A DNA stretch of 40,572 bases, from the NCBI RefSeq assembly GCF_003334355.1, contig NZ_QOWP01000032.1; one strand, written 5' to 3'. Each line of letters starts with the position of its first letter. Position 1 is the first letter of the stretch. The position numbers were made by a program, and so were the translations under genes. Origin of the DNA: Escherichia coli. GTDB taxonomy: Bacteria; Pseudomonadota; Gammaproteobacteria; Enterobacterales; Enterobacteriaceae. Shown here piece after piece: positions 18,763 through 19,767 of the stretch. Under the pieces are notes generated by a model, which had not been told where the DNA came from, did not search any database, and saw only the letters and a program-made list of their open reading frames with translations.

Positions 18763-19767
18763 TCAAACTTTGTAGAAATCACGGTACCAGTTAACAAAGT
18801 TCTTCACCCCATCTTTGACCGTGGTTTCAGGCGTAAAACCAATTACCTCATACAGTGCTTTAGTGTCCGCGCTGGTTTCCAGCACATCACCAGGCTGTAG
18901 CGGTAGCATGTTTTTCTTTGCTTCAATACCCAGCGCATCTTCCAAAGCCTGGATATAGTCCATGAGCTCAACCGGTGAACTATTGCCGATATTGTAGACG
19001 CGATAGGGGGCAATGCTGGCTGCTGGCGTGCCTGTTTCAACGGTCCATTGTGTGTCTGCGTGTGGAATGACATCCTGCAGGCGAATGATTGCTTCTGCGA
19101 TATCATCGATATAGGTAAAGTCACGCTTCATTTTGCCGTAGTTATAGACGTCAATACTTTTCCCTTCCAGCATTGCTTTGGTGAACTTAAACAGTGCCAT
19201 ATCCGGACGACCCCAGGGGCCGTACACGGTAAAGAAACGCAACCCGGTTGTGGGCAATCCGTACAAATGGGAATAAGTATGGGCCATCAGTTCGTTGGCT
19301 TTTTTGGTTGCCGCATACAGAGATACGGGGTGATCAACGGAATCATCCGTAGAGAAAGGCATTTTGCAATTCAGGCCGTAAACAGAACTGGAGGAGGCAT
19401 AGAGTAAATGCTGAATTTTATTATGGCGACACCCTTCCAGTATGTTCAGAAATCCTGTGAGATTTGAGTCAGCATAGGCATGCGGGTTTTCGAGTGAATA
19501 GCGTACGCCAGCCTGTGCGGCGAGATGAATCACACGTTCGAAATGCCCGGATGCGAAGAGATCGGTCATGCCTTCGCGGTCGGCTAAATCAATTTTATGA
19601 AACTGGAAACCAGGTTGTGCCAGTAATTCCAGACGAGCTTGTTTAAGGCTGACGTCGTAGTAATCGTTCAGATTATCAATACCGACTACTTGATGGCCAG
19701 CCTCAAGGAGGCGTTTGCTAACGTGGAAGCCGATGAAACCAGCGGCACCCGTAACCAGGTATTTCAT
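18763..19767 (-). CDS. NAD-dependent epimerase of the UDP-glucuronate 4-epimerase family (Gla/Uge/Cap1J-like)
   Basis: 334-aa ORF with [14 protein letters not shown]ossmann motif and YAATKKANE catalytic motif; convergent with ugd. Confidence 0.75.

Follow-up and report, generated by a model that had tools for sequence, protein, structure and literature searches.

The stretch of DNA analysed here, referred to as the window, comprises 40,572 nucleotides and belongs to Escherichia coli: several complete genomes of this species, from poultry, pig and human sources, match positions 17400-21200 with 100% identity. Next to ugd, the gene for UDP-glucose 6-dehydrogenase, we found an intact ATG-to-stop open reading frame of 334 aa, exactly at the coordinates given in the initial annotation, which had described an SDR gene convergent with ugd and on the strand opposite to wzzB (Table 1). 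RefSeq labels the identical sequence ‘NAD-dependent epimerase’ in nine complete E. coli genomes; we call the gene gla in the following. A spacer of 58 bp separates the convergent genes ugd and gla, while gla and wzzB are divergent and 397 bp apart, with hisIE following wzzB on the minus strand. The start of ugd was placed according to the annotation of the identical RefSeq sequence, which yields a protein of 388 aa.

Table 1 Features at and around the ugd-wzzB site of the window
Feature	Position	Strand	Description and basis
Citrobacter-like recombinant block	15800..22400	.	gnd, ugd, gla, wzzB, hisIE and most of hisF; per-gene and sliding-window identity
ugd (UDP-glucose 6-dehydrogenase)	17538..18704	+	RefSeq annotation of the identical sequence; Citrobacter-like allele
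Palindromic hairpin AAAAAGGCCTT-ATAA-AAGGCCTTTTT	18718..18743	both strands	in the 58-bp ugd-gla spacer; terminator scan and RNA folding
gla/uge orthologue	18763..19767	-	putative extended-SDR UDP-glucuronate 4-epimerase of 334 aa, intact; ORF, PF01370 and identity to Klebsiella 5U4Q
gla-wzzB divergent intergenic region	19768..20164	.	397 bp, promoters presumed; 91% to C. freundii over the whole length, absent from K-12
Shine-Dalgarno motif GAGGG	19774..19778	-	6 nt ahead of the ATG of gla; read off the sequence
wzzB (chain-length regulator)	20165..21148	+	allele common to O111 (99.6%), unlike K-12 and sampled Citrobacter

The palindrome in the ugd-gla spacer is perfect, can form a hairpin of 11 bp and is followed by a U run on each strand. 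Compared with shuffled sequences, folding gave -15.2 kcal/mol (z -4.0) and -15.6 kcal/mol (z -3.1), one value per strand, and the element is likely a bidirectional intrinsic terminator for the two convergent genes. On the other side of gla, the GAGGG motif would serve as a good ribosome-binding site. A scan with the sigma-70 consensus, a crude test, gave no match within the gla-wzzB intergenic region; the weak matches obtained were all located in coding sequence, and sigma-70-like matches were no commoner than in shuffled sequence. Fur control as reported for Klebsiella uge is not claimed here: when the Fur consensus and the published Klebsiella box were matched against the 397-bp upstream region, the best site agreed at 12 of 19 positions and was AT-rich. 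An Rfam search of positions 15500-22000 at E <= 0.1 returned zero matches, hence no structured RNA was found in the intergenic regions.

The encoded protein matches the Pfam family Epimerase (PF01370) with an E-value of 1.6e-56 over residues 4-230. Among solved structures, the top match was K. pneumoniae 5U4Q (E 1e-191), to which the protein aligns over its full length with 80% identity, 93% positives and zero gaps. The second-best entries, 6ZL6 and 6ZLA from Bacillus cereus (E 1e-45), are BcUGAepi, the UDP-glucuronic acid 4-epimerase of this species, and WbgU/WbpP followed behind (E ~1e-38). The name dTDP-glucose 4,6-dehydratase carried by 5U4Q looks like a generic automatic label. In Klebsiella, the corresponding gene lies between ugd and rfb, which we take to be the site of uge/gla(KP), and from species and position we infer that the 5U4Q gene is the characterised uge. 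The latter has been described as the gene of a UDP-galacturonate 4-epimerase that gives the first outer-core GalA and is needed for virulence (PMC11282780). None of the NCBIfam equivalogs was reached at its curated cut-off by the window protein, which scored 143.2 bits with the GalE model TIGR01179 (cut-off 262.3), 117.3 bits with NF011728 for TviC/WbpP-type UDP-GlcNAcA 4-epimerases (cut-off 760) and 140.3 bits with TIGR01181 for the dTDP-glucose 4,6-dehydratase RmlB (cut-off 365.1). The best matches are thus uronate 4-epimerases and not GalE. Judged by homology, the 334-aa ORF is the orthologue of Klebsiella uge/gla(KP) and a predicted UDP-GlcA 4-epimerase, and the Gla/Uge-type assignment of the initial annotation holds, given 80% ungapped identity to the Klebsiella protein and the conservation of key residues. 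The window gene would be expected to be expressed and its product to convert UDP-GlcA to UDP-GalA.

Conservation was assessed with a set of 80 homologues, one genome per species, with 63-92% identity. The Rossmann motif GxxGxxG is present as G7-A-A-G10-F-I-G13, with the glycines found in 79-80 of the 80 homologues. S126, Y151 and K155, the residues of the SDR pattern Ser/Thr...YxxxK, align with T126, Y149 and K153 of 6ZL6, and both Y151 and K155 are invariant (80/80). The same invariance applies to S127, S128, T180 and R187, located at the positions of S127, S128, T178 and R185 in BcUGAepi. In the Bacillus enzyme, we take T126, Y149 and K153 to be catalytic, and S127, S128, T178 and R185 to bind the carboxylate and to define specificity. 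The window protein deviates in none of the 132 columns that are conserved at >=95%. Two of its residues are odd among close homologues, namely C134, where 110 of 115 have R, and T312, where all 115 have K. We rejected them as damaging changes, as both positions vary freely in the 80 more distant homologues (T/R/S/E at 134 and K/R/A/Q/V/T at 312). Against the nearest Citrobacter allele, dN/dS amounts to 0.05. With no conserved column altered, free variation at positions 134 and 312 and this low dN/dS value, gla therefore looks fully competent at the sequence level. Linkage fits the assignment as well: the gene for the substrate-making enzyme is 58 bp away, and about half of the 80 loci have a ugd relative close by, either as a close ugd homologue (70-92% aa identity) or as a distant UDP-sugar dehydrogenase (27-33% aa identity). 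The functional link with ugd proposed in the initial annotation is hence backed by adjacency in many proteobacterial loci.

In K-12, ugd directly adjoins wzzB, with no gene between them and no such epimerase gene. The initial annotation had described the window gene as wedged between ugd and wzzB, and the sequence around it offers a different account. Using a 300-nt sliding window to locate breakpoints, we found a block that starts by about 15800 and extends to about 22400, and that is 93-99% identical to three Citrobacter loci (L005-L007) versus 67-91% to K-12. Gene by gene (gnd, ugd, gla, the gla-wzzB intergenic region, hisIE and hisF), identities are 91-96% to Citrobacter and 71-90% to K-12 where a counterpart exists; for ugd, the values are 95% and 71% at the nucleotide level. 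The opposite pattern applies to hisA through hisG, with 96-98% identity to K-12 and about 80% to Citrobacter. The switch is sharp and lies at ~22400, at the hisF/hisA border, beyond which identity to K-12 is 94-100%. Outside E. coli, the nearest proteins to Gla are confined to the C. freundii complex and reach up to 97% aa identity. Three Citrobacter contigs with three different O clusters have hisIE, wzz, the epimerase gene, ugd and gnd in the same order and with the same spacer lengths as in the window. This arrangement recurs in species-representative genomes of C. werkmanii, another Citrobacter and two Enterobacter species, and in Kluyvera minus wzz; in other Enterobacterales such as Serratia, Pantoea and Erwinia, and in a number of less related bacteria, it lies downstream of a co-oriented UDP-sugar dehydrogenase gene. 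We conclude that gla was not ‘wedged in’ by an insertion of its own and belongs to the regular gene content of a gnd-hisF block that was imported and resembles Citrobacter. The identity levels and the constant presence of the gene in Citrobacter would suggest Citrobacter as the donor and E. coli as the recipient.

The wzzB gene is a separate case. It is 99.6% identical to O111, 68% to K-12 and ~71% to the wzzB of Citrobacter, whose flanks are 91-97% identical, and has the appearance of an allele from a third source within the Citrobacter-like block. The block itself is present in O111 as well, where it reaches further, through hisA-hisC into hisD (L009, O111:H2 strain 12A, to a point equivalent to ~26200 of the window). 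As the block ends at ~22400 in the window and at ~26200 in O111, two groups of E. coli share it and differ in their right-hand breakpoint.

The O-antigen cluster that precedes the block (1165-15754) is an O55/O111-like mosaic of the colitose type. Its genes are in O111 order and encode a family 4 glycosyltransferase (GT4), Gmd, a GDP-mannose mannosyl hydrolase, ManC, ManB, an NAD-dependent epimerase/dehydratase, a DegT-family aminotransferase, Wzx, Wzy and two further glycosyltransferases; we read the epimerase/dehydratase and the DegT-family aminotransferase as colitose genes. Nucleotide identity to O111 is only 77-96%, and Wzy shares 72% aa identity with its O111 counterpart and 77% with a partial protein of Salmonella serovar Adelaide. 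A gnu-like gene is located upstream of galF, as a review describes for O55. RefSeq assigns the wzx-wzy segment to no O family, and the cluster may represent an unnamed O type. This segment occurred in exactly 9 of 5426 complete E. coli genomes. As far as we know from published structures, GalA is absent from the O55 and O111 O antigens, and the view of the initial annotation that the inferred O type has no known GalA agrees with a colitose-type cluster related to both.

The most divergent part of the cluster is its first glycosyltransferase, GT4, with 26% aa identity to the first glycosyltransferase of the O111-type cluster. We considered it as a GalA transferase and rejected it: the gene is 84-85% identical at the nucleotide level to the first glycosyltransferase gene of O55:H7, the gene of a Salmonella relative (61% aa) comes first in a cluster that also contains gmd, manC, manB and a GT11 gene of the fucosyltransferase family, and no link to GalA emerged. 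A candidate GalA transferase was not identified in the window. In the window, the GT4 gene (3661-4778) is split into two ORFs by a 1-nt deletion, which leaves a run of six A residues (4298-4303) where eight other genomes of the same type have seven. An (AAAGAC)n repeat (4219-4258) in the same gene is in frame and specifies Lys-Asp; the window has about 7 copies and strain E5 has 9, and lengths of matched regions suggest roughly 10 to 18 copies in the other genomes. The frameshift may stem from an error in sequencing or from switching on and off by slippage, or it may mark a rough variant.

Some homologue of gla is present in 596 of the 5426 complete E. coli genomes (about 11%). The window allele (>=99% nucleotide identity) accounts for 68 of them, while ~530 carry alleles with 72-78% nucleotide identity. 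Most of the divergent alleles sampled are located at the ugd-wzzB site, and wzx/wzy annotation by PGAP points to O100, O113 and O153/O178 among other types. In three of these loci (L002, L012 and L013), a small annotated gene fragment lies between the epimerase gene and wzzB. One sampled divergent copy is co-directional with ugd and surrounded by IS elements. A second kind of location is seen in E. coli O10:H32 NMBU-W12E19, where an allele of 74.5% nucleotide identity (L011, 14820-15827) lies near dsdC and a type I restriction system, away from his, and adjoins a ugd fragment, a small membrane protein gene and IS elements.

The 68 genomes with the window allele fall into two groups. The O111 allele (21364-22368 of L009 and 3001-4005 of L010) differs from the window at 4 nt, one of which turns CAG into TAG at codon 85 (19513-19515 in the window), the codon of an invariant Gln. 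In O111:H- strain 11128 and O111:H2 strain 12A, RefSeq records an internal stop and treats the gene as a pseudogene. An 81-nt probe carrying the TAG codon matched perfectly in 59 genomes and with one mismatch in the other 9. The Q85* change is thus present in all 59 O111-type genomes, the serotype-named strains of which span H2, H8, H11, H21 and NM, and the gene is intact only in the nine window-type genomes, the same nine that share the wzx-wzy segment. Two O111-type genomes have an IS element inside gla as well. The distribution of Q85* suggests that inactivation of gla preceded the spread of the O111 locus among E. coli lineages, and the O111 antigen is evidently made without the epimerase.

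How can these observations be brought together? Ugd would supply UDP-GlcA, which the adjacent Gla would interconvert with UDP-GalA by the NAD+-dependent route of extended SDR enzymes via a transient 4-keto intermediate. By homology, Tyr151 would act as catalytic base together with Lys155 and Ser126, and Ser127, Ser128, Thr180 and Arg187 would hold the carboxylate. The gene presumably entered E. coli within a block of ~6.6 kb that spans gnd to hisF and closely matches the C. freundii complex. In Citrobacter, Enterobacter, Kluyvera and Klebsiella, it is fixed between ugd and wzz or rfb beside the his operon. In E. coli, the block probably travelled with, or beside, a colitose-type O-antigen cluster, and a cell of the window type probably makes some UDP-GalA. 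Since no GalA acceptor is known or evident, gla is most likely a dispensable passenger. Taken as a whole, we favour, with a probability of about 0.65, the reading that gla is a functional gene of Citrobacter origin that hitch-hiked into E. coli and persists as a dispensable passenger with no known GalA acceptor. That the gene is probably dispensable in E. coli follows from the fixation of Q85* in the O111-type genomes; for the window lineage specifically, we infer the same. The initial annotation had suggested that the product may feed core LPS or a capsule. We found no support for such a destination, and a Citrobacter-like block together with Q85* in 59 of 59 O111-type genomes makes hitch-hiking a better explanation of gla than a hidden GalA-containing glycan.

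But why should a mere passenger be so well preserved? The gene is intact and identical in all nine genomes of the window O type, has a good ribosome-binding site and lacks signs of decay, all of which would also be expected if it were used. The main rival reading, disfavoured and in our view unlikely, hence holds that gla is in active use in the window lineage and provides UDP-GalA for an undescribed glycan, be it a GalA-containing form of the colitose O antigen, a core that is substituted non-stoichiometrically or some other surface polymer. The intact allele and the variant wzx-wzy segment co-occur in nine of nine genomes and in no others, the O111-type cluster goes with the dead allele in 59 of 59, and the first glycosyltransferases of the two clusters differ (26% aa identity). 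A gla allele at the same site exists in an O113 strain, and the O113 O antigen contains GalA. The same site is occupied by a gla allele in E. coli LL004, another strain with a GalA-containing O antigen (PMC8657804). However, the perfect co-occurrence represents only two evolutionary events, the relatives of GT4 in O55:H7 (84-85% nt) and Salmonella (61% aa) have no known association with GalA, and the window offered no candidate for the GalA transferase. As the nine copies are identical, selection on gla cannot be measured. The narrower version of active use, that the nine-genome lineage keeps the intact gene because UDP-GalA enters an undescribed surface glycan, such as a colitose O unit with GalA or a substituted core, is improbable.

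Two minor rivals, likewise disfavoured, concern the state and the specificity of the gene. An intact ORF could be silent, either untranscribed or impaired by C134 and T312, and thus a pseudogene in waiting. These two residues are unusual among enterobacterial sequences, the upstream intergenic region has no sigma-70-like match, and the sister allele of O111 is already inactivated. Against this, both positions are free to vary among the 80 distant homologues and none of the columns with >=95% conservation is affected, the upstream region shares 91% identity with Citrobacter and contains a good ribosome-binding site, and the promoter scan was no more than a crude consensus test; we therefore regard a silent gene as quite improbable. 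Hardly credible, finally, is the idea that the enzyme is a 4-epimerase acting not on UDP-GlcA, but on UDP-Glc/UDP-GlcNAc (‘Gne’) or UDP-GlcNAcA. The Klebsiella enzyme GlaKP reportedly has an extended substrate range, and the protein shows a general family likeness to WbgU/WbpP (E ~1e-38). In addition, the name gne has been used for a 334-aa gene between ugd and wzz (PMC8657804). Yet the scores fall well under the curated cut-offs for GalE (143/262), TviC (117/760) and RmlB (140/365), the uronate epimerases of Klebsiella and Bacillus are much nearer, the residues at the carboxylate-binding positions are invariant, gla is next to ugd in many proteobacterial loci, and a separate gnu/gne-like gene is already present upstream of galF (1165-2160). 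Thus, we retain the hitch-hiked, functional and dispensable gla as the preferred reading.

The E. coli literature consulted is imprecise on this point, and the gene at this site has appeared under another name. In Table 3 of the report on LL004, orf11 is a 1005-bp gene located between ugd and wzz on the complementary strand; its 334-aa product is given as ‘NAD-dependent epimerase’, and the gene is named gne (PMC8657804). The same report states that gla ‘always maps elsewhere’ and that the LL004 O unit contains GalA (PMC8657804); orf11 is probably a mis-assigned gla. In a limited literature search, neither the O111 pseudogene nor the Citrobacter-like block was found to have been described, and no usable information emerged on GalA in the core of Citrobacter. 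Both the enzyme family and its Klebsiella orthologue are already well known; the gene described here and its position are known as well, and the gene lies within a block recombined between genera. Neither the naming of gla nor the mosaicism changes the understanding of the enzyme or of LPS biology. Recognising the ugd-wzzB site as an E. coli home of gla nevertheless makes GalA-containing O types more predictable from sequence. The locus further provides a clean example of inter-genus mosaicism at the junction of O antigen and his genes, with a passenger that is dead in the O111 type and intact in a rare O111/O55-like type. If GalA were in fact used in the nine-genome lineage, this would mean a new E. 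coli O-antigen chemotype with a key sugar-nucleotide gene outside the galF-gnd interval.

Compared with known systems, Uge/Gla(KP) of K. pneumoniae resembles the window protein in length (334 aa, 80% identity), in its chromosomal position convergent with ugd beside the O-antigen and his genes, and in its predicted chemistry. We know of no GalA in the core or in the O types of these E. coli. In Klebsiella, by contrast, UDP-GalA is needed for core-LPS GalA and for virulence (PMC11282780). The Klebsiella locus further differs in having an rfb cluster (rml genes and a wzm/wzt ABC transporter) where the window has wzzB, and in an ORF of 40 aa between uge and ugd (L094, 8405-8527; PF28118, KPN01023), to which the 58-bp spacer of the window has no counterpart. 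The Fur box reported upstream of Klebsiella uge likewise lacks a convincing counterpart in the window.

The C. freundii complex is closest in sequence, with 97% aa and 94.6% nucleotide identity, the same gene order, spacers of 58 bp and about 399 bp, and flanking gnd, ugd, hisIE and hisF genes that are 93-96% identical; it differs in its O clusters and in its wzzB allele (71% identity). The O111 allele of E. coli (ECO111_RS33125, strain 11128) shares 99.6% nucleotide identity, the site and the Citrobacter-like block with the window, but is a Q85* pseudogene in a block that extends to about hisD. BcUGAepi of Bacillus cereus (6ZL6/6ZLA), a structurally and mechanistically characterised UDP-GlcA 4-epimerase, aligns over its full length (E 1e-45) with the key positions conserved, whereas the alignment is gapped, the identity is much lower than among enterobacterial relatives and the genome is that of a Gram-positive bacterium. 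The other E. coli alleles at the ugd-wzzB site (O113, O100, O153/O178 and LL004) agree with the window gene in length, position and orientation; they belong to a more divergent lineage (72-78% nucleotide identity) and, as the LL004 O unit contains GalA, have a plausible role there.
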